In this document: positions 10,118 through 35,348 of the stretch, one piece after another
How positions within the stretch are numbered: the first letter of the stretch is position 1
Layout: every line of letters starts with the position of its first letter
Source: Candidatus Kryptoniota bacterium
Lineage (GTDB): Bacteria; Bacteroidota; Ignavibacteria; Kryptoniales; JAKASW01
Direction of reading: 5' to 3'
DNA length: 53,945 bases
Assembly (NCBI GenBank): GCA_049278975.1
Contig: JBAPNE010000059.1
Location: 1 to 53,945, forward strand
Program-made: the position numbers and the translations under genes
The notes under the pieces: generated by a model
Databases searched by the model: none
What the model was told of the DNA's origin: nothing
Seen by the model: the letters and a program-made list of their open reading frames with translations, nothing else

Positions 10118-10137
10118 AATTTGAGTTCCTTTTTTAT

Positions 10138-12036: not shown

Positions 12037-13265
12037 CGAGAGCTCTTCGGTTCTTCGCCGGGCTATTCTCTATTTTCTTTGTCTCCACGCTATTGGATTC
12101 CTGCGCCAAAAGCACACTCCAGGACCCGCACCAGATAGTAATCTGGCACACGATGCATGCTGATGAACGGGTGGCTCTCGATCAAGTATTGAATGAATTC
12201 ATGGCGCAAAATCCAGGCATAACAGTTACAGCTCTCTACAAAGAAACCGAGGAGCTAAGATCGGGTTTTCAGATTGCCGCGATTGGAGGTGCCGGTCCCG
12301 ATATTGTCTATGGCCCATCGGATCAGGTCGGGCCGTTCGAGGCGATGCAAATCGTCCTTCCGCTCGATACGCTATTCAGCAAGGAATATCTCGCCAAGCT
12401 CGATGCCAAGGCACTTGTTTACAGCCATGGCCACCTATACTCGATTGCGGATAAGATCGGCAACCATATCATGCTGATTTACAATAAGTCGCTTCTTCCC
12501 AATCCGCCTCAAACGATGGATGAACTTATTTCCGCAGGAGAGAAGTTTGACGCTACGTCAAACAGCCACGCTCTTGTTTGGAATTACACTGAACCATATT
12601 TCTTCATTCCGTTCCTGACCGCGTATGGTGGATGGGTGATGGACTCGCTGGGCAATCCGACGCTCGATACGCCGGCGATGGTGAACGCCCTGAAGTTCAT
12701 GAAGGACTTGCGCGACAAATATGAAATCATCCCGAAGTCGTGTGACTACGAAACTGCCGACGCACTTTTCAAGGAAGGCAAAGCCGAGATGATTATCAAT
12801 GGCCCATGGTCTTTCGGAGATTACAAAAGGGCAGGAATAAATTTCGGCGCCACAAGAATTCCTTTTATGAAACAAACGGGTTTGTGGCCGGCACCAATGG
12901 TTTCTCCTATTGGGTATTCGATAAATGCTTCAATTCCTTCATGGAAAATACCCGAGGTGGTTAAGCTGATAAAATTTCTTATGAGCAGGGATATCCAGCT
13001 CGAGTTCACGGCGCGTTTCAATACGATCCCAACGCGGACGGAGCTGTACGACGATCCGGTTGTGCAGGGAATGACGATCGTTAAGCAATCCGAATACCAG
13101 ATGGAAGTCGGAAAGCCAATGCCGATCGTGCCCGAGCTCAGGGCAATCTGGGATGCTATGAGGCCGAGCTATCAGGCGGTGCTTGGTGGAACGGAGACTC
13201 CCGAACAAGCGGCGCAGGAAATGCAAAGAAGTGCCGTACAGAAGATTAAGGAGATGAACGAATGA
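12033..13265 (+). CDS. ABC transporter sugar (maltodextrin-type) substrate-binding lipoprotein
   Basis: Lipobox-like LLDSC. The general pattern matches family-1 solute-binding proteins ([23 protein letters not shown]). It overlaps the upstream stop by 4 nt and lies directly upstream of two MalF/MalG-type permeases. Confidence 0.8.
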
Positions 13266-18417: not shown

Positions 18418-21171
18418 ATGAAGCCGGAAGAAGAAGCTCGAAGAATAATTGATGATTTACTTTCGGGGGCGGGCTGGGCAATTCAGGACTATCGCAAACT
18501 GAATCTTGGCGCTTCGCTTGGCATCGCAGTTCGAGAATTCCCCACGAAGACCGGTCCCGCTGACTATGTCCTCTTCGTAGATCGCAAAGCAGTTGGAGTG
18601 ATAGAGGCAAAGCCGGTCGGCACAACATTGAGCGGTGTTGCCGAGCAGTCGGCAGATTACATGAGCGACATGCCGGAAAACATTCCTCATATCCAGTTGC
18701 CCCTCCCATTCGGTTACGAAAGCACCGGCAAAGAAACTTTCTTCCGAGACATACGAGACCCTGACGCACGCTCGCGCCGGGTGTTTGCGTTCCACAAGCC
18801 GGAGACACTTGCTGAGTGGATTTCACAAGACGATACGCTTCGAGGAAGATTAAGGAATCTTCCGGAGCTAACGAAGGATAAATTGCGCGACTGCCAGTTC
18901 GAGGCAATTACGAATCTTGAAGAATCGTTCAGGGAGTCGAGGCCGCGTGCGCTAATTCAAATGGCGTCTGGAAGCGGTAAGACATATACTGGAGTAAGTT
19001 TCATCTATAGGCTCATCAAGTACGCGAACGCAAAGCGGGTTCTCTTCCTTGTTGACCGCAACAATCTTGGAAGGCAAACGAAACGAGAATTTGAACAGTA
19101 CATTACTCCGGACGACGGCAGGAAGTTTACTGAACTTTATAACATTCAACACCTCACGTCAAACACTATCGACCCCGTGCCCCGTGTTTGCATAACGACA
19201 ATCCAGCGACTCTACTCCATGCTGAAAGGCGAAAAAGAGTTCGACCCTGAAGCAGAGGAAGCTTCTCTGTTTTATTTAGCTCCACCTAATGGTCAGCCTA
19301 AAGATGTTGCATATAATCCTGACATTCCAATTGAGACGTTCGATTTCATAGTAACTGATGAATGCCATCGGTCAATTTACAATCTCTGGCGGCAGGTGCT
19401 GGAGTATTTTGACTGCTTCCTAATCGGGCTGACAGCAACACCATCGAAGCAGACGATCGGCTTTTTCGACAAGAACCTCGTAATGGAATATAACCACGAA
19501 CGCGCCGTCGCTGACGACGTGAATGTGGGATACGATGTCTATCGCATCCGCACAGACATCACTGAAAAGGGAAGCAAGGTGGAGGCAGGCTTCTATGTTG
19601 GCAAGCGCAATAAAAGAACACGCGAGACAATATGGGAACAGCTCGACGATGATTTCACATATCAATCGAACCAGCTTGACCGCGATGTGGTCGCGCCCGA
19701 CCAGATACGCACGGTTATTAAGACTTTCAAAGAGAAGCTGTTCACCGAAATATTTCCGGGACGGAAAGAAGTTCCGAAGACGCTGATCTTCGCCAAGGAT
19801 GACTCTCACGCCGAGGAGATAGTTCATATTGTCAGAGAAGAATTCGGGAAAGGCAACGATTTCTGCAAGAAGATCACGTACAAAACTCCAGGAGAGAAGC
19901 CGGAGGAATTGATACAGAGCTTCCGTAACTCGTTCTATCCTCGAATCGCAGTCACGGTCGATATGATAGCAACGGGAACCGACATCAAACCGCTTGAGTG
20001 CATTATCTTCATGCGCGATGTGAGATCGGTTGTCTATTTTGAGCAGATGAAAGGCCGTGGCACAAGAGTGATCGATTCAAACGATTTTCAGGCAGTCACT
20101 TACGACGCGAAGAATAAGACGCACTTTGTCGTCGTGGACGCTGTTGGAGTCTGCGAGTCCGACAAGACAGACAGCAGACCGTTGGAGAGAAAGCGAACGG
20201 TGCCGTTCGAGAAACTGGTCCAGTCCATCGCAGTTGGCGTCAGGGATGAAGACACCATCTCATCTCTTGCCGGTCGGCTCGCGCGATTGGAGCGAGAAAT
20301 AGGAGATCAAGATAGGAAAGAAATAGAAAAGCTTTCAGGCGGGAAAAGCATAAGAGAAATTGTGAACTCCCTTCTGGATGCGATTGACCCTGATATTCAA
20401 ATAAAACATGCAAAGCAGGAATTCAAAACTGACACTCCAACCGGCGAGCAATTGAAGAAGTCGGGAGAGCAGCTTGCCGCGAGAGCCTGCCTCCCGTTCG
20501 ATAATTCTTCTCTCCGCGAGACCATCATCGAGATACGAAAACGAAACGAGCAGGTCATAGACAGAGTGAGCGAAGACAAGCTCATCTTTTCTGGATTCGA
20601 CGAGAATGCGAAGGAGAAGGCAAAGAGCACAATTGAGACGTTCAAGAAGTTTATTGAAGATAACAAGAATGAGATTGATGCGCTTCAGTTGATATACAGG
20701 AAACCTTATGGCCAGCGACACCTGACATACGAGATGATAGAGAATCTAGCGGCAGCGATAAGAAAGCCGCCGTATCGTCTGACGGAAGAAGTGGTGTGGC
20801 ACGCTTATGAACAGCTTGAGAAATCTAAAGTTCGCGGGGCCGGTCCGGCGAAACTCATGACCGACATTATCGCATTGGTGCGCTACGCCATTGGAGCAAG
20901 CGATGTGCTTGAGCCGTTCCCTGAAATGGTTGAAGAGAAATTCAAGCGATGGATTGCGAGGCAGGAAGAGCAGGGACGTGAGTTCAAGCTGGAAGAGATG
21001 GCGTGGCTCACCATGATAAAGGACCACATCGCAACGTCCGCCGTTATCGGATGGGATGACTTCGACAACATTCCGTTCAGCGACAAGGGTGGAAGGGTTA
21101 AGGCGTACCAAATATTCGGAGACAAGTTGGAAGGCATCATGGTCGAATTGAATCGGGAGCTGGTGGCGTGA
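18418..21171 (+). CDS. hsdR: Type I restriction enzyme R subunit (EcoEI-like, with the C-terminal EcoEI_R_C-type domain)
   Basis: N-terminal PD-(D/E)xK nuclease region GPADYVLFVDRKAVGVIEAKPVG. Helicase motif I is MASGSGKT and motif II is VTDECHRS. The long helical C-terminal domain is typical of EcoEI-type HsdR. hsdS and hsdM lie downstream. Confidence 0.9.
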   Translation: MKPEEEARRIIDDLLSGAGWAIQDYRKLNLGASLGIAVREFPTKTGPADYVLFVDRKAVGVIEAKPVGTTLSGVAEQSADYMSDMPENIPHIQLPLPFGYESTGKETFFRDIRDPDARSRRVFAFHKPETLAEWISQDDTLRGRLRNLPELTKDKLRDCQFEAITNLEESFRESRPRALIQMASGSGKTYTGVSFIYRLIKYANAKRVLFLVDRNNLGRQTKREFEQYITPDDGRKFTELYNIQHLTSNTIDPVPRVCITTIQRLYSMLKGEKEFDPEAEEASLFYLAPPNGQPKDVAYNPDIPIETFDFIVTDECHRSIYNLWRQVLEYFDCFLIGLTATPSKQTIGFFDKNLVMEYNHERAVADDVNVGYDVYRIRTDITEKGSKVEAGFYVGKRNKRTRETIWEQLDDDFTYQSNQLDRDVVAPDQIRTVIKTFKEKLFTEIFPGRKEVPKTLIFAKDDSHAEEIVHIVREEFGKGNDFCKKITYKTPGEKPEELIQSFRNSFYPRIAVTVDMIATGTDIKPLECIIFMRDVRSVVYFEQMKGRGTRVIDSNDFQAVTYDAKNKTHFVVVDAVGVCESDKTDSRPLERKRTVPFEKLVQSIAVGVRDEDTISSLAGRLARLEREIGDQDRKEIEKLSGGKSIREIVNSLLDAIDPDIQIKHAKQEFKTDTPTGEQLKKSGEQLAARACLPFDNSSLRETIIEIRKRNEQVIDRVSEDKLIFSGFDENAKEKAKSTIETFKKFIEDNKNEIDALQLIYRKPYGQRHLTYEMIENLAAAIRKPPYRLTEEVVWHAYEQLEKSKVRGAGPAKLMTDIIALVRYAIGASDVLEPFPEMVEEKFKRWIARQEEQGREFKLEEMAWLTMIKDHIATSAVIGWDDFDNIPFSDKGGRVKAYQIFGDKLEGIMVELNRELVA

Positions 21172-21196
21172 GGCGGAGTTTTGAACCTCTCCCTGG

Positions 21197-21217
21197 CCCT
21201 CCCCTTTTAGGGGAGGG
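21197..21217. repeat. CCCTCCCCT-ttt-AGGGGAGGG palindrome (family copy 1)
   Basis: Perfect 9-bp arms. Related copies lie at 21705-21725 (CCTTCCCCT-gtt-AGGGGAAGG), 21788-21802 (TCCCCT-gtt-AGGGGA) and 21861-21875 (CCCCCT-aaa-AGGGGG). Confidence 0.8.
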
Positions 21218-21289
21218 AACGTATCCCCAAATTGTGAGGCGAGGAATAAGTTGTTCCCCTAGCAAAAGCACCGCACTAAATCCTGGTAT

Positions 21290-21317
21290 CCGCCTAAAAG
21301 GGGGATTATAGGGGGTT
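21290..21317 (+). repeat. 28-nt direct repeat, left copy, ending 3 nt before the DUF559 start codon
   Basis: ccgcctaaaagggggattatagggggtt compared with ccccctaaaagggggaccacagggggtt at 21861-21888: 24 of 28 positions identical by eye. Confidence 0.7.
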
Positions 21318-21320
21318 CCT

Positions 21321-21890
21321 ATGCCACGGTACTTCAAATACGCCAAAGGCTCGATTGACAAAGCCAGAAGACTCCGCCGCGCGATGACGGACGCGGAACG
21401 TAAGCTATGGTCGAAGCTGAGAAACGAACAGCTTGGCGTCCAGTTCAGAAGACAAGTCCCCGTCGGTCCTTACATAGTGGATTTTATTTGCATCAAGCGA
21501 GGGCTTGTCATCGAAGTGGACGGCGCTCAGCACTACACCGATGAAGGAATGGAATACGATAAGATTCGCACAACGTATCTGGAGAATGAAGGACTGACCG
21601 TAAAACGGTTCGGTAACCACGACGTGCTGACGAATATTGATGGAGTGGTACGGGAAATACTGGAGTTGCTGGAGAAGCAGGAAATCCGCAAACCTCATCC
21701 TGTCCTTCCCCTGTTAGGGGAAGGAACGAGTTCGCAACCAGCAGAGGAAACCCACTCTTCTGAGGATGAAAACACAAAAACAAACCGTCCCCTGTTAGGG
21801 GAAGGGACGAAATCTTCAAAGTCAAAGAGAGTCCCTGGTAGAGTTCCTGAAATAAACTGTCCCCCTAAAAGGGGGACCACAGGGGGTTGA
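21321..21890 (+). CDS. DUF559 (Vsr-like fold) endonuclease-domain protein with a repeat-derived C-terminal extension
   Basis: ARRLRRAMTDAERKLWSKLRNEQLGVQFRRQVPVGPYIVDFICIKRGLVIEVDGAQH...KRFGNHDV is the typical DUF559 core. Residues after about 120 (PLLGEGT twice, then PPKRGTTGG) are translations of the CCCCT..AGGGG palindromes. Confidence 0.8.
   Translation: MPRYFKYAKGSIDKARRLRRAMTDAERKLWSKLRNEQLGVQFRRQVPVGPYIVDFICIKRGLVIEVDGAQHYTDEGMEYDKIRTTYLENEGLTVKRFGNHDVLTNIDGVVREILELLEKQEIRKPHPVLPLLGEGTSSQPAEETHSSEDENTKTNRPLLGEGTKSSKSKRVPGRVPEINCPPKRGTTGG
21705..21725. repeat. CCTTCCCCT-gtt-AGGGGAAGG palindrome (family copy 2), inside the 3' part of the DUF559 ORF
   Basis: Perfect 9-bp arms with a 3-nt loop, followed by aacgag as in copy 1 (aacgta). 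Confidence 0.8.
21861..21888 (+). repeat. 28-nt direct repeat, right copy, ending at the DUF559 stop codon
   Basis: See 21290-21317. It contains the palindrome CCCCCT-aaa-AGGGGG. Confidence 0.7.
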
Positions 21891-21987
21891 TGAATCGCAT
21901 CGGCAATATATCATGGATAATCCGGCAAAATGGGAATCCGAGAGCAACGAAAATGATGGTATTATGCGGAGGAGTTGAAATAAAGCC

Positions 21988-24210
21988 ATGAAAATCAAAC
22001 TGGTCAAAGACTGGGACACAGGGATTCAACCACCAATCGGCAAATCAAAAGTGAAAGGACACTTTGCCGGAAGGAAAGATGAAGTAAGCAAGTTGACTAA
22101 TGATCTCCTCAATAGGGAAGAAGGCGCGATTTTGATCAGTGGCTACCGAGGTGTGGGAAAGACTTCCTTTGTTTACAAATGTCTATCGAACGCGCTAGTC
22201 AACGAAAAGGGTGCTCTCGTAGTCCTTCTCAATGCGCCCCAACTACAAGACGACGACGGTAAGGTTGTTAAGAATCTTATTCGTCGACTTTACTCGGCAA
22301 TCAAAAACGAAGATACCGTTAAAAGAAACCTTAAAGAAGATCTCGAAACCTTATATAGAAAAGCGGTCTCAAAGGAGTTCAGTCTCCAACAAGTTTTTCA
22401 AAAGCAGGCTGAGATGTCGGTTTCATCTAACAAGGAACAAGGAATCGATATCAGTATTTCCGAAAGAGATTGGAGAACAATTGTACTAATCACTTCTTGG
22501 TCATTGGCCATGATATTGCAGCTCTTTCCTGCCACAGACTGGAGTTGGTTTAACAAAATTGTTCCATTGCTACTTGCCCTACCTGTTCCTTTTGGATTTA
22601 GTCTCTGGTATAAAAAGAAGAAAGTTAAGGAAGAAAAGAAAAGTCTGTTCGGATCAGCTAAAGAGCTTTACGAATTTGACAACAGCGCGGGTAATTTAGA
22701 GTCGGATTTGCGTGATCTTCACGAGCAGTTGTATAATGGCGGACACAAGGTTGTATATGTGATAGATGAGTTGGATAAGTTGGCGAATGCTCAAGCAGCG
22801 TTAGACATCTTCAGCAAGCTAAAGAATCTCTTCACTCTTTCGAAAGCTCTTTTCATTATCATCGGCGATGAGGAACTGTATAGCAAGGCTAGCGTGAAAA
22901 CGAGTTCGCAAAATGGTTTTCGGGCAAAAGAATACACATACTTCACTCATAAGTATTTCATTGCGAGACCTTCATGGACTGACCTAAGTGATTATATCGA
23001 TGAAATAGTTGACAAGAAGGAGATTGACGAACCTAGTTACAGCAATTTAAAGCATGCATTGCTTTTTGAATCTCAAAACGATTTCTTTGACCTTCTTGAA
23101 AGGATTAGAGACAGGATCACTTCTTATGATGGTCGTCAACCCGTAATTGAGTTCGAAGCGCTCTCAGACGAGGATGTCAAGAAAGCAAAATTGCACAAGG
23201 CAGTCGTCTTAGTATTCGAAGAGAAATACAAAAGCGAAATGATTTCAAAATGGCAGGAGAACGAACTAATCATTCGCCATCTTCTCGCACATGCGAAAGG
23301 GATTGCAGAAGACTATGTTGGGTTCGAGATTCAAGATGGTCAATCAATAGATATGTTGGACTCAGCAAAGAGGAACTTTAATGGACTGCTTTCGCGAATC
23401 GGAGCGTTGACCGTGATTCAAGAAGATACCTGCAACGTGAGTGGATCGTCCGTCCGAGTAAATAAATACAGATACGAAGGTTTGGTGCCGCGAGACCCAC
23501 CGAAACACTTAACTGAACCCAGCGAACTGGAGCTAAAATTTCTGGATGCTTTTGGGCGATATTGCGATTACATCGTGTCAATTATCAACTCATTTCATAT
23601 TCCAACCGGAAAGCCAACACTTTCGAGACATGAACTGCTTGAACATCCGACTGAATATCTTGAAGAATTGAGATCTCCACAAACAGATGTGAGTAATCCA
23701 TTCAGTAGCGGGCGAGAAATTTATCTTAACCTGACCACCAAACTGCCGCCCACAGTTTACAAAAGAGACCAGATAGAGCAAGCCACATCGAATGTCTTGA
23801 ATCAAACCAAAAACCTTCTTGCCAACATTCGATTGATCTTTATGCATATGATTAAAAGGTTCAATTCCAATGAATTACAGGATCAGTTGCTTTCATCAAA
23901 CAATAACTTGTTTGTGGGCTCGGCTCAGGAGATCAGAAATTTCCTAGGAGCTTTTCAACATATCGTCGTCTTTAAGCGCGACTTATCAAAGCAACTATTG
24001 ATTCTTGAAAAGACTGATGCTAGCGGCGAGAAGATTCGGCAGGTACAGGGAATCATATTGACACTCACAGACAAATTCATGATTTTAGTGATCGGTGCCG
24101 GTGCTAAACCTATTGATGACGTTTTGAACGTAACAACTGATTCTCCTGACGAATTGCGGAAGACAGGGATGGATGCGGTGGGCCAAATAAGAGACTTTTT
24201 CGGGCTCTGA
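21988..24210 (+). CDS. P-loop NTPase with two TM helices inserted between Walker A and Walker B (KAP-like topology) and a C-terminal region of about 470 aa with no recognised motif
   Basis: FAGRKDEVSKLTNDLL...AILISGYRGVGKTSFV carries Walker A (22141-22167). The hydrophobic segments TIVLITSWSLAMILQLF and IVPLLLALPVPFGFSLWY (22474-22611) are followed by KKKKVKEEKK. Walker B is VVYVIDELDKL (22750-22776). The stop TGA shares one base with the hsdS ATG. Confidence 0.75.
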   Translation: MKIKLVKDWDTGIQPPIGKSKVKGHFAGRKDEVSKLTNDLLNREEGAILISGYRGVGKTSFVYKCLSNALVNEKGALVVLLNAPQLQDDDGKVVKNLIRRLYSAIKNEDTVKRNLKEDLETLYRKAVSKEFSLQQVFQKQAEMSVSSNKEQGIDISISERDWRTIVLITSWSLAMILQLFPATDWSWFNKIVPLLLALPVPFGFSLWYKKKKVKEEKKSLFGSAKELYEFDNSAGNLESDLRDLHEQLYNGGHKVVYVIDELDKLANAQAALDIFSKLKNLFTLSKALFIIIGDEELYSKASVKTSSQNGFRAKEYTYFTHKYFIARPSWTDLSDYIDEIVDKKEIDEPSYSNLKHALLFESQNDFFDLLERIRDRITSYDGRQPVIEFEALSDEDVKKAKLHKAVVLVFEEKYKSEMISKWQENELIIRHLLAHAKGIAEDYVGFEIQDGQSIDMLDSAKRNFNGLLSRIGALTVIQEDTCNVSGSSVRVNKYRYEGLVPRDPPKHLTEPSELELKFLDAFGRYCDYIVSIINSFHIPTGKPTLSRHELLEHPTEYLEELRSPQTDVSNPFSSGREIYLNLTTKLPPTVYKRDQIEQATSNVLNQTKNLLANIRLIFMHMIKRFNSNELQDQLLSSNNNLFVGSAQEIRNFLGAFQHIVVFKRDLSKQLLILEKTDASGEKIRQVQGIILTLTDKFMILVIGAGAKPIDDVLNVTTDSPDELRKTGMDAVGQIRDFFGL

Positions 24211-25661
24211 TGGAAAGCCCGTCTAACGTGGAACATTGCCTGCCGAACGGTTGGGTGCGTACAACCCTCGGTAGTGTGCTTAGTTTCGTAAAAGGGAAAA
24301 AGCCTTTGAATCTTGGAAGCAAATTAGACAATAGCTTCCTTCCATACGTCAACATTGAGGCATTTGAAAAAAAGATACTTTCGCAGTACGCCAGGGCTGA
24401 TGGCCATCCAACATGTAACAAAGACGATGTATTAATTGTCTGGGACGGCGCAAGATGCGGATTGGTCGGAAGAGGTGTTGATGGAATAATAGGATCAACT
24501 CTTGCAAAGCTTCCTTACGACGAAATGGACGGTTCGTTCATCTTTTATTTCCTGCAATCGAAATATAATTTGATAAACAAGAGACCAAGGGGTGTAGGTA
24601 TCCCTCATGTTGAACCAAATCTATTCTGGAGCATCGTTTTTCCTCTTCCTCCACTTCCCGAGCAGCATCGCATCGTCGCGAAGATAGAAGAGCTGTTCTC
24701 CGACTTGGACGCGGGCATCGAGGCGCTGAAGAAAGTCAAAGCTGAACTGAAGCGATACAGGCAATCAGTGCTCAAGGCAGCCGTGGAAGGAAAACTCACT
24801 GCTCCATGGCGTGAGGCTAACAAAGGGAAGGTGGAGCCCGCGGCGGTACTTCTTGAGCGAATACGAGCGGGACGAGATTCTGTAAGGGCACGGCATGCCG
24901 TGCCCCAACGACAGGCAAAAGACCTTCCACCAATCGATACGTCCGAGTTGCCAAAGTTGCCGGAAGGGTGGGAGTGGACAAGAGTTGGTACGGTTGCCGA
25001 GACGTGCCTGGGGAAGATGCTTGACAAGGTGAAAAACAAAGGTGAGTATCAACCATATCTCCGCAACATAAATGTTCGATGGGGAGGGTTTGATCTAAGC
25101 GATTTGAGTCAAATGAAGTTTGAACAAGATGAAGAACAAAGGTATGGGTTGCTCCATGGCGACCTCGTTGTGTGTGAAGGTGGAGAACCGGGGCGAGCCG
25201 CTGTCTGGACTGGTACACCCGGCATGAAGATTCAAAAGGCGCTTCATCGAGTTCGCTTTGTGGCAAATACCGTGACGGCCGAATTCCTCCAATCTTACTT
25301 GGAACACGCTGCCAAAAACGGAATCTTGGAGAAATATTTTACTGGAACCACCATTAAACACTTCACCGGAGTCAGACTGGCTGAGTTTGTTCTTCCGTTG
25401 CCACCATGCCAAGAGCAACTTCAAATCGTCTCCGAAGTCGAGCGGCGACTCTCGGCTGCCGACGAAGTAGGGACATATTGCGATATGTCCCTACGGCAGG
25501 CGGAACGGTTGAGGCAGAGCATTTTGAAAAGGGCGTTTGAAGGGAAGTTGGTGCCGCAGGACCCGACGGATGAACCTGCATCGGTTTTATTGGAGAATAT
25601 AAAGAGGAAAAAAATAGAAGAAAAAGCGATAAAAAGTTCAAATAAAAGAGGTAAAAAATGA
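24210..25661 (+). CDS. hsdS: Type I R-M specificity subunit with two target-recognition domains
   Basis: Two TRDs are separated by conserved helices: LPPLPEQHRIVAKIEELFSDLDAGIEALKKVKAELKRYRQSVLKAA and LPPCQEQLQIVSEVERRLSAADE...RQSILKRAFEGKLV. Confidence 0.9.
   Translation: MESPSNVEHCLPNGWVRTTLGSVLSFVKGKKPLNLGSKLDNSFLPYVNIEAFEKKILSQYARADGHPTCNKDDVLIVWDGARCGLVGRGVDGIIGSTLAKLPYDEMDGSFIFYFLQSKYNLINKRPRGVGIPHVEPNLFWSIVFPLPPLPEQHRIVAKIEELFSDLDAGIEALKKVKAELKRYRQSVLKAAVEGKLTAPWREANKGKVEPAAVLLERIRAGRDSVRARHAVPQRQAKDLPPIDTSELPKLPEGWEWTRVGTVAETCLGKMLDKVKNKGEYQPYLRNINVRWGGFDLSDLSQMKFEQDEEQRYGLLHGDLVVCEGGEPGRAAVWTGTPGMKIQKALHRVRFVANTVTAEFLQSYLEHAAKNGILEKYFTGTTIKHFTGVRLAEFVLPLPPCQEQLQIVSEVERRLSAADEVGTYCDMSLRQAERLRQSILKRAFEGKLVPQDPTDEPASVLLENIKRKKIEEKAIKSSNKRGKK
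24886..24905. repeat. Perfect 20-nt palindrome GGGCACGGCATGCCGTGCCC inside hsdS, read in frame as ARHAVP
   Basis: Read directly from the sequence. A sister copy lies at 27159-27178 in hsdM. Confidence 0.9.
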
Positions 25662-25688
25662 GATTAATATCGATGAAAAACGTTATTT

Positions 25689-25717
25689 AAAAGTCTCATT
25701 TTAACGAAATGACTTTT
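25689..25717 (+). terminator. Imperfect hairpin after hsdS
   Basis: aaaagtctcattt / aaatgactttt with one bulge, followed by an AT-rich tract (ttattat). Confidence 0.35.
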
Positions 25718-25737
25718 ATTATATTATAACTACTTAT

Positions 25738-25765
25738 AATTTAGTTTCGAGCGTGAAACTAAATT
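25738..25765. promoter_or_regulatory. 11-bp perfect inverted repeat AATTTAGTTTC-N6-GAAACTAAATT upstream of fic
   Basis: Read directly. The arm shares AGTTTCGA with the downstream tandem repeats. Confidence 0.45.
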
Positions 25766-25780
25766 ATGGGAATCTATAAT

Positions 25781-25840
25781 AAAGTTTCGATATCGAAAAT
25801 AGAGTTACGATATCACAAATAAAGTTTCAATATCAGAGAA
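25781..25840 (+). promoter_or_regulatory. Three head-to-tail 20-bp repeats (possible operator or iteron-like sites) ending 18 nt before the fic start
   Basis: aaagtttcgatatcgaaaat / agagttacgatatcacaaat / aaagtttcaatatcagagaa, with the core GTTnCnATATC at an exact 20-bp period. Confidence 0.5.
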
Positions 25841-25858
25841 AGTCAAAAATAAGGAAAA

Positions 25859-26992
25859 ATGGACTTCAAAGAGTTCACAGCCGGAACGTACACTCAACAG
25901 TATCAGTACAAGAGCTTCGGCCCATCAACGATAAATCACGAGTGGACGTGGTCTGATCCTAAAATCAATATCCTCCTAGCCGATGCCAGTCGAAAATTGG
26001 GTGAACTTAACGCCTTTGCAGCGTCGGTTCCTGATGTCGACATTTTCGTAAGGATGCATGTGGCGAAAGAAGCGACCAAGTCGAGCGCAATCGAAGGGAC
26101 AAGAACCGAGATCGAAGAGGTTGTTTTGCAGGAACAAGATGTTCTTCCAGAGAAGCGAGACGACTGGAATGAAGTCCAGAATTATATCTCCGCGATGAAC
26201 ACTGCCATTGAACGGCTGAAAGAAATGCCGCTCTCCACCAGAACGTTGAAGGAAACTCATCGTACGCTACTCCAGGATGTCCGGGGAGAACACAAGACTC
26301 CAGGCGAATACCGCACAAGTCAGAATTGGATCGGCGGTGCAACGCTGGATGATGCAACGTTTGTCCCACCTCATCATTCTGAAGTCAATGCGTTGATGGG
26401 TGACCTTGAAAATTTTCTTCACAATCCGAACATCGATGTTCCGAGACTGGTTAGAATTGCGATAGCGCATTATCAGTTTGAAACTATTCATCCGTTCCTC
26501 GACGGCAACGGGAGAATCGGTCGGTTATTAATAACGCTTTATCTTGTGAGTGAAGGGCTTCTCTCTAAACCGACTCTCTATCTCTCTGACCATTTAGAAA
26601 GACACAAGACTTTATATTATGACAATCTCATGCTTGTCAGAACTCGGAACGACATAGGCCAGTGGGTGAAGTTCTTGCTCGCCGCCGTAATGGAGACCTG
26701 CGACAAAGGAATTGAGACCTTCAGAAAAATACTCAAACTGAAAGATGAAATTGAAGGCAATAGGCTTGTGACTCTCGGCAGGAAAACGAAGATTGCGAAG
26801 TCCTTCTTGAATCATCTTTACAGTAATCCTGCTACCGACGTTGCGAGGGTGAAGGAAGTTCTGAACTTGAGTCAAGCATCGGCGAATTCGCTTGTGGCGG
26901 ACTTTGAAAGGCTCGGGATTCTTAAAGAAATCACTGGGTTCAAGCGCAACAGGTACTTTCTGTTTTCGGAATACATAAACCTCTTCAAATAG
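25859..26992 (+). CDS. fic: Fic-domain protein (AMPylase-type) with an N-terminal inhibitory-helix motif and a C-terminal wHTH-like region
   Basis: Fic motif HPFLDGNGRIGR (26489-26524). An SxxxEG motif, SSAIEG, lies at about 26081-26098. The stop is 9 nt before the hsdM ATG. Confidence 0.9.
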   Translation: MDFKEFTAGTYTQQYQYKSFGPSTINHEWTWSDPKINILLADASRKLGELNAFAASVPDVDIFVRMHVAKEATKSSAIEGTRTEIEEVVLQEQDVLPEKRDDWNEVQNYISAMNTAIERLKEMPLSTRTLKETHRTLLQDVRGEHKTPGEYRTSQNWIGGATLDDATFVPPHHSEVNALMGDLENFLHNPNIDVPRLVRIAIAHYQFETIHPFLDGNGRIGRLLITLYLVSEGLLSKPTLYLSDHLERHKTLYYDNLMLVRTRNDIGQWVKFLLAAVMETCDKGIETFRKILKLKDEIEGNRLVTLGRKTKIAKSFLNHLYSNPATDVARVKEVLNLSQASANSLVADFERLGILKEITGFKRNRYFLFSEYINLFK

Positions 26993-27001
26993 CGAATCCA
27001 A

Positions 27002-28471
27002 ATGTCTAATGAATCATCCACGATAGTTCAGCGTCTCTGGAACTACTGCAACGTCCTCCGCGACGACGGCGTAAGCTATGGCGACTACGTCGAGCAGTTG
27101 ACGTATCTCCTTTTCCTCAAGATGGCTGATGAACAAACGAAGCCGCCATTTCGTGTCGGGGCACAGCATGCTGTGCCCATACCAGATGGTCTCGACTGGG
27201 AAAGTCTTATCAAGAAAGACGGCGACGAGCTTGAGGTTCATTACCGACATGTCCTCGATTCTCTCGGCAAGGGATCTGGAATGCTTGGCGTGATATTCAG
27301 AAAATCTCAGAATAGAATTCAAGACCCTGCCAAACTTAAGAGGCTTGTCGAATTGATCAACGATGAGACCTGGATGGGTTTGGACGTCGACATTAAAGGT
27401 GAGATTTACGAAGGCTTGTTGCAGAAGAACGCTGAAGACGTGAAGAGTGGCGCGGGACAGTATTTCACTCCGCGACCGCTGATTAAGGCCATGGTTGATG
27501 TCACTCGTCCTGAATCCATGATGACAATTTGTGACCCCGCATGTGGGACCGGTGGCTTTTTCCTTGCCGCACACAATCACCTTGAGCACAAGCAGCTCGA
27601 CAAGAAACAGAAAGATTTCTTGAAGGCAAAGACTTTCAAAGGCTGGGAGATTGTAGATAGCGCGGCAAGGCTTTGCGTAATGAATCTTTACCTCCATGGC
27701 ATCGGAGGTGAAGAGAGTCCGATTACCGTAGCTGACAGTTTGGCATCGGAACCAAGCGAGCACTTCGATACTGTCCTAACAAATCCGCCTTTCGGCAAGA
27801 AGAGCAGCATCACGATAGTGAATGGAGAAGGAAAGGCCGACAAAGAATCCATCATGTATGAGAGGCAGGACTTTTGGGCTACGACTTCCAACAAACAGCT
27901 AAACTTTCTACAGCACGTGAGATCGCTTCTAAAACAAAATGGGAAAGCAGCAATCGTCGTTCCCGATAATGTTCTCTTTGAAGGCGGTGCAGGCGAGACA
28001 GTCAGGAGAAAGTTATTGCATGATTGCGACGTGCATACACTCCTTAGACTTCCGACTGGTATTTTCTATGCACAAGGTGTGAAAGCAAACGTACTTTTCT
28101 TCGAGAGAAAGCCCGCCAGCGAAAAGCCATGGACTGAGAAACTCTGGATATACGACTTGCGAACGAACACACATTTTACTTTGAAAACGAACACCCTCAA
28201 GTACGAAGACCTCAAAGATTTCATAGACTGTTACAATTCGGACAACCGTCGAGATCGTAAGGAATCCGAGCGGTTCAAAGTATTCACGTATGAAGAGCTT
28301 ATGCAGCGCGATAAAGCCAGTCTCGACATATTCTGGCTGAAGGATGACAGCCTTGAAGACTCCGCGAATCTACCCGACCCCGATGTAATTGCGCAAGACA
28401 TCGCAGAAAATCTTGAGGCTGCGTTAGAGCAGTTCAAGAGCGTTAGGGAAGGACTAGAGAACGGGAAGTAG
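27002..28471 (+). CDS. hsdM: Type I R-M N6-adenine DNA methyltransferase subunit
   Basis: HsdM N-terminal domain LWNYCNVLRDDG...YVEQLTYLLFLKMADE. AdoMet motif DPACGTGGF and catalytic motif TNPPFG. Confidence 0.92.
   Translation: MSNESSTIVQRLWNYCNVLRDDGVSYGDYVEQLTYLLFLKMADEQTKPPFRVGAQHAVPIPDGLDWESLIKKDGDELEVHYRHVLDSLGKGSGMLGVIFRKSQNRIQDPAKLKRLVELINDETWMGLDVDIKGEIYEGLLQKNAEDVKSGAGQYFTPRPLIKAMVDVTRPESMMTICDPACGTGGFFLAAHNHLEHKQLDKKQKDFLKAKTFKGWEIVDSAARLCVMNLYLHGIGGEESPITVADSLASEPSEHFDTVLTNPPFGKKSSITIVNGEGKADKESIMYERQDFWATTSNKQLNFLQHVRSLLKQNGKAAIVVPDNVLFEGGAGETVRRKLLHDCDVHTLLRLPTGIFYAQGVKANVLFFERKPASEKPWTEKLWIYDLRTNTHFTLKTNTLKYEDLKDFIDCYNSDNRRDRKESERFKVFTYEELMQRDKASLDIFWLKDDSLEDSANLPDPDVIAQDIAENLEAALEQFKSVREGLENGK
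27159..27178. repeat. Perfect 20-nt palindrome GGGCACAGCATGCTGTGCCC inside hsdM, read in frame as AQHAVP
   Basis: Read directly. It differs from the hsdS copy only at the symmetric pair G..C versus A..T, so the palindrome is preserved. Confidence 0.9.
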
Positions 28472-28530
28472 AATAAATAGTGTGGCCGCCCCTTTCGGAG
28501 CGACCAACACGTGATGGATCCTACTTACGG

Positions 28531-29233
28531 TCAGTCCGTCAACGTAAGTGAGCTTGAAAGCGTGCCGGAATACTTAACCGGTTTGCCCGCCGCATCGAGG
28601 GTCAGCAGCGCCAGTAGGATTGTCCTACCGGAGTAGCTTCCAATGCTCGCCGCATCCTGACCCGACAACGCGATGTTGAAGGTGAGTGCGTTGTTGAGAT
28701 CAACCGGCTTCGAGTCCGACGTTCCCGATGCGAACAGGAACTCAGGATAGGTCTCGTTCGAAGGGTTCGTCAGGCTCAGCACGTAAGCCATCTTAGCGTT
28801 CGGCTCTTTAGTTACGTCGATGCCGGCGGCACTTCCAATCGTCGCCATCGCGACCGCTATGGCGTTTCCCGTAAGGCTTGCGCTGGTGCAGCTGACCCCG
28901 AAGCTGTGCTCAGGGACTATCGTCGTAAGGTCGGAGACCGAGCTTGGGTTCACGATCAGGATGTTTTCCTGTACCATGAAATTGAACGTTGTCATCCCGC
29001 TTGGTGTCAGGGGCTGCCAAAATCCGGCAAGCTCGGGGACGGAATAGATCGCCTGAGCGAGCTTGGCCGAGAACTTGAAACGGGCCCTTCGGTCTATCGA
29101 CCCCCTGGTCGTCGGGGGGAGCGTAGCGGCCTGGCCGCGTCCCCACGAAGTTCTTGCCGTTGCGTTGGCGGAATACAGTGTCGCCGATTCTTCCGCTGAA
29201 TCTGCCGAGTACGGCTTTTGTTAGTTCTGCCAT
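28531..29233 (-). pseudogene. Frameshifted gene (about 234 aa if repaired) resembling the Bacteroidota DUF6266 type of hypothetical protein
   Basis: The two minus-strand ORFs 28910-29233 and 28531-28995 are in different frames. My translation upstream of 28995 continues as ...LPPTTRGSIDRRARFKFSAKLAQAIYSVPELAGFWQPLTPSGMTTFNF. The frames meet at a 6-nt homopolymer (plus-strand G6, 29114-29119), and deleting one base joins them. The N-terminus is LGRFSGRIGDTVFRQRNGKNFVGTRP. Confidence 0.55.
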
Positions 29234-29642
29234 TGAAATTGTCCTTTCATTTTGTTTTGTAATGGCAAATTAGTTAATTAGTTACAGAGCGAGTCAGTGC
29301 GGATGCATCTCTTCGTGAGAGGCGCCATGGAGCATCTCATTTCCGGGAAGCAGGCTCAACCGAGAGATAACCGGGAGATAGCCGAGAATGAAGCGTCGGC
29401 TCTCTGTGCGCTGACTTCGTTTCTCTGAATATTATTACTCACTACTAAACATATTTTGCCATTAACAAATATTTTTTCCCGACGGCAAAATCGGGCTTTT
29501 TGTGAGTAATAAGTAGTAGAAGAAGCATGAAGGTAAATTTGATACATACTTATGAGAATTCACTATGGTGCGCTTCTAAAACGTAGGAGGACAGAAATGA
29601 CACTCAGACAAATTGATTTCGCAGTAAAATCAGGGAGTGAAA

Positions 29643-30305
29643 ATGGGGACAGAGGATGATTGTAAAAAAATAGGGCTTATTGAAAGTTTCGTAAGAGATA
29701 AAAATAGACTTGAGAAGGTTGTTGCAATAGCGGAAAGGCTGTTGAGATGGAATGAAGACGGCAGCTCTTGTAGCTATGGAGAGTCTGAACGGGCAGTGAC
29801 CGCAGAATGTATCGTGCATGAACTGGTGGCTGATGCTTTGTGCGGAACCCGTAAATGGAATATTAAAGAAATGCCGGAATTTGACGGCTGGATAATAACC
29901 CAATTAAAAAGCAAGAAATGGAATCTTGTTCGTGAGCTGCTTCGCCCTTTGCCTTCTAAAAGAAAGGCTAACAACGAAGAGGCTACCGACGATCCGGACG
30001 AAAATTATTTCAGACCGACTGTTTCTTTACAAGAGGAGATCGAGAAAAATGGGTTTGATCCGCCCGGCGATCATGACTACGTCCGAGATTACGAGGATGA
30101 TGAATTTGTCAAGGTTTTGAAACGTGAACTTGAGGGCCGGGTAATCGACTACTTTGTGCTTGAGGGAGTATTAGATAAACAAGGTAACATAGAAATCGCT
30201 TCTGATTTGAAAATAAAAGTGAGTGAGGTCGTGAATGCCAAAAAGAGAGTCGGTCGAGTGATCGACGAGTTGAAAAGAGGAAGAAGCAACGATCGTTCGA
30301 AATGA
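29643..30305 (+). CDS. Divergent sigma-70-family (ECF-like) protein
   Basis: Region-2-like AECIVHELVADALCGTRKWN...FDGWIITQLKSKKWNLVRE and region-4 HTH-like YFVLEGVLDKQGNIEIASDLKIKVSEVVNAKKRVGRVIDEL. A gggag RBS precedes the ATG at 29643; the ORF track starts at GTG 29637. Confidence 0.5.
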   Translation: MGTEDDCKKIGLIESFVRDKNRLEKVVAIAERLLRWNEDGSSCSYGESERAVTAECIVHELVADALCGTRKWNIKEMPEFDGWIITQLKSKKWNLVRELLRPLPSKRKANNEEATDDPDENYFRPTVSLQEEIEKNGFDPPGDHDYVRDYEDDEFVKVLKRELEGRVIDYFVLEGVLDKQGNIEIASDLKIKVSEVVNAKKRVGRVIDELKRGRSNDRSK

Positions 30306-30700
30306 GTCTGCACGTCTTGGAGATCGACCGGTTTAAAAGTTAGAACAAATAATCAGCAAGAAGAAAAGGACAAACGCTTAATATCTTATGAAGGTACCTA
30401 TGACTAGTATTTCGGTATCTTCGTTCCAGAGGCCGTTATGAGGAGCACGCTGTCAGTTAGTAGGTTTATCGTCTCATCTTATCATGACACCAACGAAGTT
30501 GTGTCTAAGAGAATTTGTGGTACACCGCTTTTCCCTGCGTATCTATTCTATCCTATAGATAAGTATTTCCTTCTCAGGAAGCCGTCTGGAAAAATAAGAC
30601 TCGGAACTTTGCATCAAAGAAGGTTAAGATGGCACATGCCCGGGACGGAAATGCTGATAAAACTTGCCATGTGTTTTAAGAATTAATCAGGCAATAAAAT

Positions 30701-31093
30701 ATGGAGGAACAAATGGACCGAGAAGCTTTCATGGATTTCTACTTGGACAACAGCGATGAAGATCCGGAGTATATTCATGAGTATCTCGTCAAGGAAGGTA
30801 TTGATATCGATGGGCTTCAAGCGAGGTTGTTGGAGTTGATTGCAAAACGTAAGGCCGAACAAAAGTTGGTGGAAGGGAAAAAGTTCAAATCAGCATATGA
30901 GGAGATGAAGCGGAAAGCGGATTCAATATTTGGAAAGAAAGTCAGCGAGGAAGTGAACACAACAGCAGTTGCTTACAGGAAACACCAAGGGGAATCTGAA
31001 GAGGATGCAACGGAAAGTGTTGATGACGCTAAAAAGTTAGCAATGATTAAACAGGCGAAGGAATCTTTATCTAATGGAAAGAAGGCAAAGTGA
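30701..31093 (+). CDS. Hypothetical acidic/Lys-rich helical protein (130 aa)
   Basis: A clean ORF with a ggagg RBS (aatatggaggaacaaatg). No motif was recognised. Confidence 0.5.
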   Translation: MEEQMDREAFMDFYLDNSDEDPEYIHEYLVKEGIDIDGLQARLLELIAKRKAEQKLVEGKKFKSAYEEMKRKADSIFGKKVSEEVNTTAVAYRKHQGESEEDATESVDDAKKLAMIKQAKESLSNGKKAK

Positions 31094-31134
31094 AAGTCGG
31101 AGAAGTGCGTTGTGTCCTGCGAGCCGACTACCGG

Positions 31135-31268
31135 CCATTGCGAGGAGGGCGACCAGCGAAGCGGACGGACGACGCGGCAATCTCGATCATGGCTGATGGA
31201 CGAAGGGCTTTCTATGTCCGCATCGTGGACAAGTGGAAGATGAGATTGCCTCGCTTTGCTCGCAAAGG
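31135..31268. repeat. Composite long-hairpin repeat of the CATTGCGAG...GGCAATCTC // GAGATTGCC...CTCGCAAAGG type
   Basis: The outer arms ccattgcgag (31135-31144) and ctcgcaaagg (31259-31268) match at 9 of 10 positions. The inner arms ggcaatctc (31176-31184) and gagattgcc (31242-31250) match at 9 of 9. Confidence 0.6.
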
Positions 31269-31333
31269 CGAATTCGTGGCTTATTATCCAAGCTCCGACA
31301 ATACGAGCCACGAAGGAAACAGGAAAGAAACTG

Positions 31334-32098
31334 ATGACCGCATTAGCTGAAGGAAGAGCGCGTGAGCTGCTGAACGCCTACTGTATCAAATCTCCGGAAG
31401 GACTAAAGAACTTAGATGAGATCGCGAACGCCGAGGGTCTAATAGTGGAAGACGCAGACTTAAGTAATTGCCAGGGGAAAATCGCATATGAAGAGACCAT
31501 GGGGCTTATCAAGGTAAGCACTGCTGTACGTGAGCCGGGAGCGAGAAGGTTCGTGATCGCGCATGAGATGGGACACTTCTTTAACGAGAAGTCGAAGCTG
31601 AATAGATGTGCGTCGCAAGATATGCTGCCGGTAAAGTCAAAGAAAGTCGGCGAGGACGATGCAAATGCTTTCGCCGTCGAGCTTTTGATGAAGAAGGAAT
31701 GGTACTCCGAATTCGTGAAGGACAAGGATCCGGGCATCGAAGCCATTAGAAAAGCCGCGGAATACTTCGGAGTTTCGCTCAGCGCGGCTGCAATTCGATA
31801 TTCGCAGGCAGGAAACTTTCCTGTCGCGGTAATCATGACGCATAAGCGTAAAGTGTCCTGGAGTTCAATAAGCGAACTTTTCCCGTACCAGTATGTCGGC
31901 AAACATCATCCTGTCAACAGTTACTCCGAGGCAGAAGCGTTTTATAGCGGAACGAAGGTGGACACTGCGCCTCACTCTGTTCTCGCCGACTCGTGGTTCT
32001 TAGAAGACCGCAGCTTCCGGCGAAACCATTCTCTTGTCGAGCAAATCCTGCCAATGCCGAATTATGATTCGCTGCTCGCGGTTGTGTGGGAGGGGTAG
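31334..32098 (+). CDS. ImmA/IrrE-family (DUF955/COG2856-like) zinc metallopeptidase with an unassigned C-terminal domain
   Basis: HEMGH zinc motif at 31562-31576. The N-terminal part ARELLNAYCIKSPEGLKNLDEIANAEGLIVEDADL is typical of ImmA. I chose the start at ATG 31334, which has an aggaaa RBS; the ORF track starts at 31256, inside the repeat. Confidence 0.75.
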   Translation: MTALAEGRARELLNAYCIKSPEGLKNLDEIANAEGLIVEDADLSNCQGKIAYEETMGLIKVSTAVREPGARRFVIAHEMGHFFNEKSKLNRCASQDMLPVKSKKVGEDDANAFAVELLMKKEWYSEFVKDKDPGIEAIRKAAEYFGVSLSAAAIRYSQAGNFPVAVIMTHKRKVSWSSISELFPYQYVGKHHPVNSYSEAEAFYSGTKVDTAPHSVLADSWFLEDRSFRRNHSLVEQILPMPNYDSLLAVVWEG

Positions 32099-32642: not shown

Positions 32643-33737
32643 GTGTCGGAAGACCTTATGAACGTTGCTCTTGTCTTTAACATTAAAAGAGAGAGCACCA
32701 TGGAGGCTGACGCTAATCTTATCTCTTCTCCTTCCAAAACCACCTCAACATCTCAATCGAAACTCTCCTACGAAGGAAAGGTCATCGATAAGTATGCAGA
32801 GTGGGACACCGCCGAGACGATCGACGCCGTAGCCCGCGCTTTATCGCTGTACCACGATGTTACGTTTGTTGAAGCTGACGAGAACGCCTACGACAGGCTT
32901 CGCGGCGGAGAGTTTGACATCGCCTTCAACATCGCCGAAGGGATGAATGGCGTCAGCCGGGAAGCGCAAATCCCCGCCATGCTTGAATTCCTAGGAATAC
33001 CTTATACCGGTTCCGACCCGCTTACTCTGGCAACCTGCCTGGATAAGTCAAGGACAAAAGAAATTTTGAGTTATCACAGGATACCTACTTCGAAATTTGT
33101 CGTTGCAGATTCATTTGAAGAAGCATCGAAAGCATCATTGCGTTACCCACTTTTTGTTAAGCCGCTCCACGAAGGTTCGAGCAAGGGAATCTATAACTCT
33201 TCCTATGTCGTGAACCAAGCAGCGCTCCAAAAAGAAGTTGAACGAATACTAAATGATTACGAGCAGCCCGCACTTGTAGAAGAATACTTGCCCGGGAGGG
33301 AATTCACCGTAGCACTGCTTGGTAATGGGAATGAATTGAAAGTCCTGCCACCCGTTGAAATAACTTTCGATTCACTGCCATCAGAGGCACTGCCTGTTTA
33401 TTCTTATGAGGCCAAATGGCTTTGGGATACAAAAGATTCCCCTATTGAAGTTTTCAAATGTCCGGCACCAATCAGCGATTCTCTGAACACAAAAATTGAG
33501 AATGTGTGCAGGAAGGCATTTGAAGTTCTAAATTGCCGCGACTGGAGCAGGATTGATGTGCGCCTTGATGCTGAAGGCGAGCCTAATATAATCGAAATCA
33601 ATCCGCTGCCAGGAATTTTACCAGATCCGGAAGAGCATTCATGTTTCCCGATGGCTTCGAGAGCCGCGGGCCTGGACTATGGTCAAATGATGAATGCGGT
33701 CCTAGATGCGGCAATCAAGAGAATAGGTAAGTCATAG
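32643..33737 (+). CDS. ATP-grasp ligase of the D-alanine--D-alanine ligase family (paralog 1)
   Basis: Overall Ddl-like pattern: FNIAEG..G.SREAQIPAMLEFLGIPYTGSDPLTLATCLDKSRTKEIL, PLFVKPLHEGSSKGI, EEYLPGREFTVALLGN and IEINPLPG. The start is more likely ATG 32658 (MNVALVFNIK) than GTG 32643. Confidence 0.8.
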   Translation: MSEDLMNVALVFNIKRESTMEADANLISSPSKTTSTSQSKLSYEGKVIDKYAEWDTAETIDAVARALSLYHDVTFVEADENAYDRLRGGEFDIAFNIAEGMNGVSREAQIPAMLEFLGIPYTGSDPLTLATCLDKSRTKEILSYHRIPTSKFVVADSFEEASKASLRYPLFVKPLHEGSSKGIYNSSYVVNQAALQKEVERILNDYEQPALVEEYLPGREFTVALLGNGNELKVLPPVEITFDSLPSEALPVYSYEAKWLWDTKDSPIEVFKCPAPISDSLNTKIENVCRKAFEVLNCRDWSRIDVRLDAEGEPNIIEINPLPGILPDPEEHSCFPMASRAAGLDYGQMMNAVLDAAIKRIGKS

Positions 33738-33778
33738 CTCGTAACTTATTGTGCATGTTTAACTTATAAAGGCGGCTT

Positions 33779-35345: not shown

Positions 35346-35348
35346 TTT

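Follow-up and report, generated by a model that had tools for sequence, protein, structure and literature searches.

The stretch of DNA analysed here (53,945 nt, contig JBAPNE010000059.1 of a Candidatus Kryptoniota bacterium, called the window at its full length) carries at positions 18418–28471 one intact type I restriction-modification (R-M) system resembling EcoAI and EcoEI, and comparison with related loci makes it probable that the two junctions between its subunit genes are swappable slots for autonomous defence or selfish cargo. The locus under study consists of six open reading frames (ORFs) on the + strand, in the order hsdR, DUF559, a KAP-type NTPase gene, hsdS, a SoFic-type fic gene and hsdM. 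The intergenic gaps along it are 149, 97, −1, 197 and 9 nt; at the overlap, the last base of the NTPase TGA is the first base of the hsdS ATG. ORF calls and Pfam both agree with the original prediction, a reading of the same DNA that had listed six same-strand genes under these labels, with gaps of about 150 and about 100 nt around DUF559, 9 nt between fic and hsdM, and an NTPase/hsdS overlap, which amounts to 1 base. That reading had also described the hsdS-fic gap as AT-rich, repeat-bearing and 198 nt long; composition and repeats hold, but the gap measures 197 nt. Its proposal that the locus is split into two units does not fit the relatives, since hsdR..hsdS..hsdM is the native order in all of those examined, including the loci designated L017, L034, L181, L183 and L185.

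The closest HsdM relatives among those listed, on long contigs, are L181, L183 and L185, and their cargo differs both between hsdR and hsdS (slot 1) and between hsdS and hsdM (slot 2). In L181 (HsdR 95% and HsdM 91% identical), slot 1 holds an 82-aa ORF and a DUF559 gene (97% identical) and slot 2 a 534-aa unknown protein; NTPase, Fic and any counterpart of the 197-nt spacer are absent. L183 (HsdR 84%, HsdM 90%) has a RAYT (REP-associated Y1 transposase) gene and PDC-M34B-like genes in slot 1, and a 237-aa, 5′-truncated Fic in slot 2. L185, whose hsdR is fragmented (HsdM 87%), has RAYT and PDC-M24A/B in slot 1 and a distant Fic with a 188-aa protein in slot 2. The NTPase is the sole passenger in L085 and L087, and the more distant L017 and L034 have other cargo in the S-to-M slot. 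At the DNA level, the window is a mosaic relative to L181: identity is 90% at 18419–21303, 93% at 21270–21930, 98% at 24640–25594 (hsdS from 24640 onward) and 80% at 27000–28453, whereas 21931–24639 (the NTPase gene and the first target-recognition domain of hsdS, TRD1) and 25595–26999 (the spacer and fic) have no DNA match there. Because the scaffold is kept and the cargo differs among relatives, the two internal junctions are read as cargo slots. The same distribution runs counter to the integrated layered module with conserved passengers that had been predicted: L181 lacks both NTPase and Fic, L085 and L087 have the NTPase only, and L183 and L185 carry other cargo. Each passenger also occurs independently elsewhere, as pure hitch-hiking would have it, but no passenger-free relative was found among those examined.

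Taking hsdR, hsdS, hsdM as the native order, with slot 1 between the first two genes and slot 2 between the last two, homologous recombination in conserved flanks would swap the slot contents. Candidate flanks are the hsdR 3′ end together with a RAYT relic, the conserved central part of hsdS around position 24640, the 3′ end of that gene, and the beginning of hsdM around 27000. Slot 1 here holds a selfish-looking DUF559 cassette, which appears to have overwritten the RAYT gene, and a predicted membrane-anchored KAP-type NTPase; slot 2 holds a SoFic-type AMPylase that probably arrived with its own 197-nt structured upstream region. The R-M system would provide first-line restriction, and SoFic and the NTPase may be self-contained second-line defences of the abortive-infection type, SoFic by AMPylating targets as described for SoFic, and the NTPase at the membrane, where KAP NTPases and Tmn have been proposed to act. 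Both may gain co-transfer and co-expression from their seat in a highly mobile operon. A search with HsdM finds more than 8000 homologues at E < 1e-100; the 120 listed, at 78–92% identity, stem from Bacteria and Archaea, and this breadth at high identity marks the R-M family as highly mobile.

Additional genes inside type I R-M operons have precedents, and the architecture is not in itself new. In Campylobacter jejuni M1 the locus reads hsdR-rloA-rloB-hsdS-hsdM, and the R-linked ORFs vary by strain (PMC2928727); the Campylobacter precedent cited in the original prediction is thus sound. Like the C. jejuni loci, the present one has an R-x-S-(y)-M arrangement on one strand, with variable unknown ORFs between subunit genes. 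It differs in its cargo proteins and in its R-M family, which is of the EcoEI_R_C type, and an AAA_21-type ATPase that recalls the Campylobacter cargo was seen in L017, not in the window. L034 shows how large such cargo can be: its S-to-M slot (8525–12847) encodes a 1440-aa KAP/AAA_16 NTPase-Ser/Thr kinase-FHA fusion followed by two unknown genes, a PIN gene occupies its R-to-S interval, and McrBC lies 3′ of its hsdM.

By gene content and motifs the type I system is complete, with restriction and methylation activity predicted from them. The hsdR gene (18418–21171, +, 917 aa) encodes an EcoAI/EcoEI-like restriction subunit with the Pfam domains HSDR_N, ResIII, SWI2_SNF2, Helicase_C and EcoEI_R_C, and its PD-(D/E)xK nuclease motif (D49...E63-x-K65) and helicase DECH are both intact. 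The specificity subunit HsdS (24210–25661, +, 483 aa) has two target-recognition domains, matched by Pfam Methylase_S in two stretches and by PADLOC Specificity_I (1e-112) across aa 9–473. The N6-adenine methyltransferase subunit HsdM (27002–28471, +, 489 aa) matches Pfam HsdM_N and N6_Mtase (7e-71) and retains the S-adenosylmethionine motif DPACGTG and NPPF. PADLOC, the check that the original prediction had proposed, labels R, S and M as type I components and Fic as SoFic over its full length. The EcoEI_R_C domain of HsdR and its matches to the PRK11448 and restrict_EcoAI (EcoAI/FtnUII) models ally the system with EcoAI and EcoEI (type IB). Unlike those enzymes, it falls below the NCBIfam equivalog cut-offs (406 vs 729 bits for PRK11448 and 196 vs 550 for restrict_EcoAI), which makes it a family-level relative and not an orthologue, and its gene order and embedded cargo also differ.

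Within slot 1, the DUF559 gene (21321–21890, +, 189 aa; Pfam PF04480, Vsr-like endonuclease fold) looks, from its sequence surroundings, like a selfish, hairpin-bracketed passenger and not like a defence layer. Its Pfam match (124.3 bits, cut-off 20.6) spans aa 13–117, and codons 125–189 run through hairpin repeats. Between the window and L181, codons 1–124 differ by 29 synonymous and 4 non-synonymous changes, and codons 125–189 by 0 and 2; this pattern argues that the domain is a selected protein, under purifying selection as judged from the substitutions, and that the tail is conserved as a DNA repeat. The first hairpin around the gene, the C-run/G-run hairpin CCCTCCCCTTTTAGGGGAGGG, stands just 3′ of the hsdR stop (21197–21217) and has a homologous hairpin at L181 5915; three more lie in the 3′ tail of the ORF (21703–21725, 21785–21805 and 21859–21877). 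The gene is further bracketed by a 29-nt direct repeat on the + strand, whose left copy (21289–21317) ends 3 nt before the ATG and whose right copy (21860–21888) ends at the stop codon; the copies are 86% identical, and the window contains 2 where 0 are expected. Behind it, at 21891–21951 (+), lies the relic of a RAYT gene 3′ end, of which the last 40–60 nt are kept: a 42-nt segment matches the end of the L185 RAYT gene at 93%, and tblastn pairs RQYIMDNPAKWESESNE with RQYIMDNPAKLKLNDRE. Intact RAYT ORFs overlap the hsdR stop in L183 (4635–5222) and L185 (4664–5266). Given the relic downstream and the position of RAYT directly after hsdR in these two relatives, the DUF559 cassette appears to have overwritten a RAYT gene.

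The DUF559 gene was compared with eleven further loci, which belong to Alpha- and Gammaproteobacteria, Deinococcota and Cyanobacteria and include L181. There, DUF559 genes lie in spacers of unrelated operons, for example in paaD-paaZ, in an hpa cluster, upstream of dnaG, and between a TRAP transporter and nirK. Perfect C-run/G-run hairpins of the type CCTCCCC-loop-GGGGAGG (CCCTCCCC-loop-GGGGAGGG) lie at most 260 nt from DUF559 in 8 of the 11 (L176, L177, L178, L181, L187, L188, L190 and L191), and their density is 3.6 per kb beside DUF559 versus 0.3 per kb elsewhere, a 12-fold enrichment. In Deinococcus psychrotolerans, the bracket is a perfect terminal inverted repeat of about 45 nt within the paa operon. 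On two cyanobacterial plasmids (L191 1825–4349; L179 1–6330) the cassette lies within or beside the DUF1156 methylase gene of a DUF499/DUF1156 system, and in Synechocystis B12 the DUF1156 gene appears interrupted by it. We looked for DUF559 relatives on viral contigs and found none, and a literature search found no paper on the association between DUF559 and hairpins. It is possible, but on balance doubtful, that hairpin-bracketed small DUF559 genes form a cross-phylum class of mobile endonuclease cassettes homing into intergenic spacers.

The second passenger of slot 1 is a KAP-type P-loop NTPase (21988–24210, +, 740 aa; Pfam KAP_NTPase and AAA_16). The KAP_NTPase match (PF07693) scores 38.0 bits against a cut-off of 20, Walker A (GYRGVGKT, aa 52–59) is intact, and Walker B lies at about aa 257–264, where D260 and E261 are invariant in 24 family sequences; across these 24 diverse members, 44 columns are invariant. 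Hydropathy and an AlphaFold 2 prediction place two hydrophobic helices (about aa 159–179 and 186–229) in the interval that separates the two Walker motifs, and this hairpin, followed by a basic, lysine-rich stretch, is kept in 23 of the 24. Two (or four) transmembrane helices within the P-loop domain are a KAP-family hallmark. The predictions support membrane anchoring of the NTPase, in line with the 'membrane NTPase' named in the original prediction. The whole protein is modelled with a pLDDT (AlphaFold 2 confidence) of 82.8, and its C-terminal module (aa 328–740, about 410 aa) reaches 91.1. A fold search with the N-terminal ATPase returned Orc1/Cdc6 and BREX BrxC at low TM-score; for the C-terminal module there was no PDB fold match, and PDB profile search, Pfam and NCBIfam were all empty. 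The top Foldseek match of this module, Kpn2I, is not meaningful (E = 0.09, TM about 0.2), and a conserved ExExR/K stretch considered as a nuclease motif was dropped, as it sits at a helix start. The NTPase as a whole matches no NCBIfam model. Its family, found in uncultivated Bacteria and Archaea, comprises at least 159 proteins with a length of about 750 aa. In L080 (ENA ERZ25039540), a single indel splits the gene (3567–5790) into ORFs of 580 and 122 aa, which may be a long-read error or a real inactivation; the gene is intact in the window and in an independent short-read assembly, L081.

A role in phage exclusion at the membrane has been put forward for KAP NTPases (PMC3387028), and Tmn is a KAP NTPase with two transmembrane helices between Walker A and Walker B (bioRxiv 10.1101/2022.08.21.504612). 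The window NTPase resembles Tmn in being a P-loop KAP protein with two predicted helices in the same interval. An identification with Tmn was nevertheless rejected, given that a PADLOC scan of four family members at E ≤ 10 returned only PifA, mad8 and PDC candidates; PADLOC-DB 2.0 presumably contains a tmn model. For the window protein itself, PADLOC gave weak P-loop matches alone (PifA, 7e-6, aa 45–122; mad8, 1.6e-3). The best of these, F-plasmid PifA, was likewise set aside: at 741 aa it has about the same length, but the similarity is confined to the P-loop motifs, hhalign gives a probability of 30% over 97 columns, and PifA has no hydrophobic hairpin. MADS was excluded on bit scores well under the equivalog cut-offs (MADS2 122.6 vs 720, MADS5 30.7 vs 400), the mad8 match being the one just given.

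The genomic contexts of the NTPase bear on whether it is mere cargo. L084, L085 and L087 show the order R-NTPase-S-M, and NTPase relatives at 68%, 42% and 43% identity belong to compact hsdR-NTPase-hsdS-hsdM operons that lack DUF559 and Fic. In L082, an NTPase relative at 75%, hsdS follows and then a different, non-orthologous Fic. A second, unrelated type I family (HindI-like HsdR, T1RH-like_C) has the order hsdM-(MNT/HEPN)-NTPase-hsdS-(OLD-like)-hsdR. Other copies are found at a type III-like locus and with a type IIG methyltransferase, HerA/DpnI, a PLD nuclease, a SMODS gene and housekeeping genes. Directly 5′ of hsdS, the NTPase gene occurs in the window and in L082, L085, L087, L089, L002, L101, L102, L104 and L106; these loci represent two unrelated type I families, and their NTPase-hsdS gaps range from −4 to +28 nt. 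Counted over non-redundant loci with enough downstream sequence, hsdS is immediately 3′ of the NTPase in 8 of 35, or 9 of 36 with the window included; L101, with 637 nt of downstream sequence only, was kept out of this count. In the window, the overlap of NTPase stop and hsdS start makes co-translation with HsdS probable.

These contexts are the basis of a guard model, in which the HsdS/HsdM complex would keep the NTPase inactive at the membrane until phage anti-restriction proteins of the Ocr/ArdA type disable the R-M enzyme and so release it, leading to abortive infection; as an ATPase, it would play the part that PrrC has with EcoprrI and RonA with Ronin. In Ronin (HsdMS-RonA), HsdMS silences a membrane effector, which anti-restriction proteins set free (bioRxiv 10.1101/2023.04.06.535777). 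The recurrent position before hsdS in the window and nine loci of two unrelated families speaks for the model, as do the R-M context of 10 of the 11 inspected NTPase relatives at ≥42% identity, the conserved membrane hairpin and the Ronin/PrrC precedent. The likeness to EcoprrI-PrrC and Ronin lies in an extra gene inside a type I hsd locus, here for a predicted membrane-anchored NTPase coupled to hsdS. Unlike those systems, the window has neither an anticodon-nuclease domain nor a RonA-like 61-aa peptide, and its hsdR is intact, so that the analogy is positional only. The nearest R-M relatives, L181, L183 and L185, lack the NTPase, an absence that also weakens the candidate role of a conserved fourth R-M subunit; moreover, hsdS does not adjoin the NTPase in 27 of the 35 non-redundant loci, copies also stand by type III-like, type IIG, HerA/DpnI and housekeeping genes, and no effector domain is recognised in a protein whose C-terminal fold has no PDB match. 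We consider the guard model unlikely. The comparison with L181 hints that the NTPase and TRD1 of hsdS may travel as one block, but L082 makes this uncertain, as it has the NTPase in common with the window at 79% DNA identity and TRD1 not.

Turning to slot 2, the fic gene (25859–26992, +, 377 aa) encodes a SoFic-type AMPylase in which a winged-helix-like domain at the C-terminus joins Fic_N and the Fic core. The PADLOC SoFic profile (PDLC03963) matches at 6.4e-120 over its full length (aa 13–376 against 4–358 of 361), the active-site motif HPFx(D/E)GN(G/K)RxxR is present as HPFLDGNGRIGR at aa 211, and the class II inhibitory motif SSAIEG lies at aa 75. SoFic is described as a toxic AMPylase causing abortive infection, and the E. 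coli copy is accompanied by a small (about 47 aa) downstream antitoxin, AS1 (PMC12249575). The window protein is like the Shewanella and E. coli SoFic in its full-length profile match, its Fic and class II motifs and a C-terminal domain as in EcSofic (PMC12249575). It is unlike them in scoring below the NCBIfam ProtAdlyltaseSoFic equivalog cut-off (161.7 vs 550 bits) and in lying inside an R-M operon behind a repeat-bearing spacer; an AS1-like gene directly downstream of fic was not found, and hsdM starts 9 nt later. Elsewhere, SoFic-type genes stand alone on plasmids, on the opposite strand of a Synechocystis type I locus, and beside a Thermus DUF1156 methylase. The loci compared bear out the statement of the original prediction that Fic genes are common next to R-M systems. 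The 237-aa Fic of L183 is 73% identical, and both genes end 9 nt before hsdM.

Upstream of fic lies the AT-rich, non-coding spacer (25662–25858, +, 197 nt). In it, a terminator-like hairpin follows the stop codon of hsdS, an inverted repeat with 27-nt arms spans 25722–25781, and a 20-nt tandem repeat (2.9 copies, 25778–25835), which includes the palindrome TTTCGATATCGAAA, stands directly before the fic ribosome-binding site. Its RNA fold (−44.5 kcal/mol, z = −4.5) is stabler than those of shuffles, and a −10/−35-like match lies at 25753–25780. The + strand of the spacer has no ORF of ≥20 aa, so no small antitoxin ORF was found there, and similar repeats were not found upstream of other SoFic genes; that the C-terminal domain of Fic binds the 20-nt repeats is pure speculation. 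The model of the original prediction, in which the locus is an integrated layered module of two separately controlled units, R-DUF559-NTPase-S and Fic-M, draws on the hairpin, promoter-like match, tandem repeat and RNA fold of this spacer and on the 9-nt fic-hsdM interval in the window and L183. We regard it as quite improbable. Its passenger set is conserved in no relative examined, and DUF559 behaves as a selfish cassette in non-defence operons. Most relatives have S, cargo and M in close succession, with gaps of −4 to 6 nt where measured, hence the spacer is specific to the window lineage. Methylation requires HsdS, and since HsdS is encoded in the upstream part, within the 'restriction' unit, a clean separation of restriction side from modification side is doubtful. 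The promoter-like matches are not enriched either: 16 were counted, compared with 13.9 ± 3.5 in shuffles, and the sigma-70 promoter/terminator scan, whose counts were not clearly above shuffles, was set aside as evidence. Its consensus may be unsuited to the host, because a type IX secretion system (T9SS) sorting domain at 37006–40746 in the window points to a probable organism of the FCB (Fibrobacterota-Chlorobiota-Bacteroidota) group, with different promoters.

An alternative at the opposite extreme is that the passengers are decaying insertions without current function and that the R-M genes alone matter. Such decay would be consistent with the last 65 codons of the DUF559 ORF lying in repeat DNA, with the RAYT relic as a trace of past gene destruction in the slot, with the frameshifted NTPase of L080 and with the 5′-truncated Fic of L183. 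All three passenger ORFs of the window are full length with intact catalytic motifs, however; the DUF559 domain shows the excess of synonymous changes (29 to 4) relative to L181, and the NTPase is intact in the window and L081 and belongs to a family with 44 invariant columns in 24 members. We therefore judge this alternative very improbable.

The reading as an R-M scaffold with two cargo slots has points against it as well. The habit of the NTPase of adjoining the hsdS 5′ end argues for a functional tie over random cargo, and the 9-nt fic-hsdM junction is kept in L183 at about 75% DNA identity, so that Fic and M may have formed a unit for longer than the word 'cargo' suggests. The recombination mechanism is deduced from mosaic boundaries alone, and every gene of the locus is known here from sequence alone. 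The comparison loci are mostly metagenome-assembled, and gene fragmentation in them (the L080 NTPase frameshift, the L185 hsdR) is possibly assembly error.

Two of the subunit genes themselves contain small repeats. A perfect 20-bp, REP-like palindrome, GGGCACGGCATGCCGTGCCC, lies in frame in the hsdS linker (24886–24905), where alignment to L082 shows it as an insertion, and a second copy, GGGCACAGCATGCTGTGCCC, lies in frame in a variable loop of HsdM (27159–27178) that is 4–5 aa longer than in homologues. The palindrome, GGGCAC(R)GCATGC(Y)GTGCCC, occurs just these two times in the window, and both copies encode an A(R/Q)HAVP stretch; between them lie hsdS TRD2, fic and the 5′ end of hsdM. As the RAYT gene of L185 contains this palindrome too, it is probably a REP element. 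The hsdS linker of L082 (about 3085–3150) has a 66-nt G-rich tandem insertion of GGGGACGGGGGGACTCGGAGAC-like units that is absent from the window, and the hsdS linker seems prone to insertions of small repeats.

Beyond the locus, L080 matches window positions 18422–31270 at 99.95% and diverges abruptly thereafter: L080 (12851–13967) enters an aminotransferase gene, and the window continues into a Peptidase_M78 (IrrE-like) ORF at 31256–32098. The junction at 31270 is strain-variable. Further on, two tandem D-Ala-D-Ala-ligase-like ATP-grasp genes and a lysine-2,3-aminomutase-like radical SAM gene (32643–36557) may form a small peptide or amino-acid modification cluster unrelated to the R-M locus. 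Scans of the window for tRNA genes and Rfam families gave no matches.

Two parts of the locus deserve to be followed: the NTPase family, which is uncharacterised, and the hairpin-associated DUF559 cassettes. The NTPase could be a widespread, previously undescribed R-M companion among uncultivated bacteria and archaea, co-translated with HsdS, docking on HsdM2S and acting as a membrane abortive effector upon anti-restriction, a proposal that we hold to be a long shot; its placement before hsdS nevertheless gives a concrete hypothesis of R-M-coupled backup immunity. For DUF559, long a domain of unknown function, the hairpin-associated signature of a selfish cassette in several phyla suggests a function. 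The R-M family, for its part, would be a carrier with two defined slots, and since cargo of its relatives matches PADLOC candidates (PDC-M24, PDC-M34), these slots may be a cheap place to mine new defence genes.

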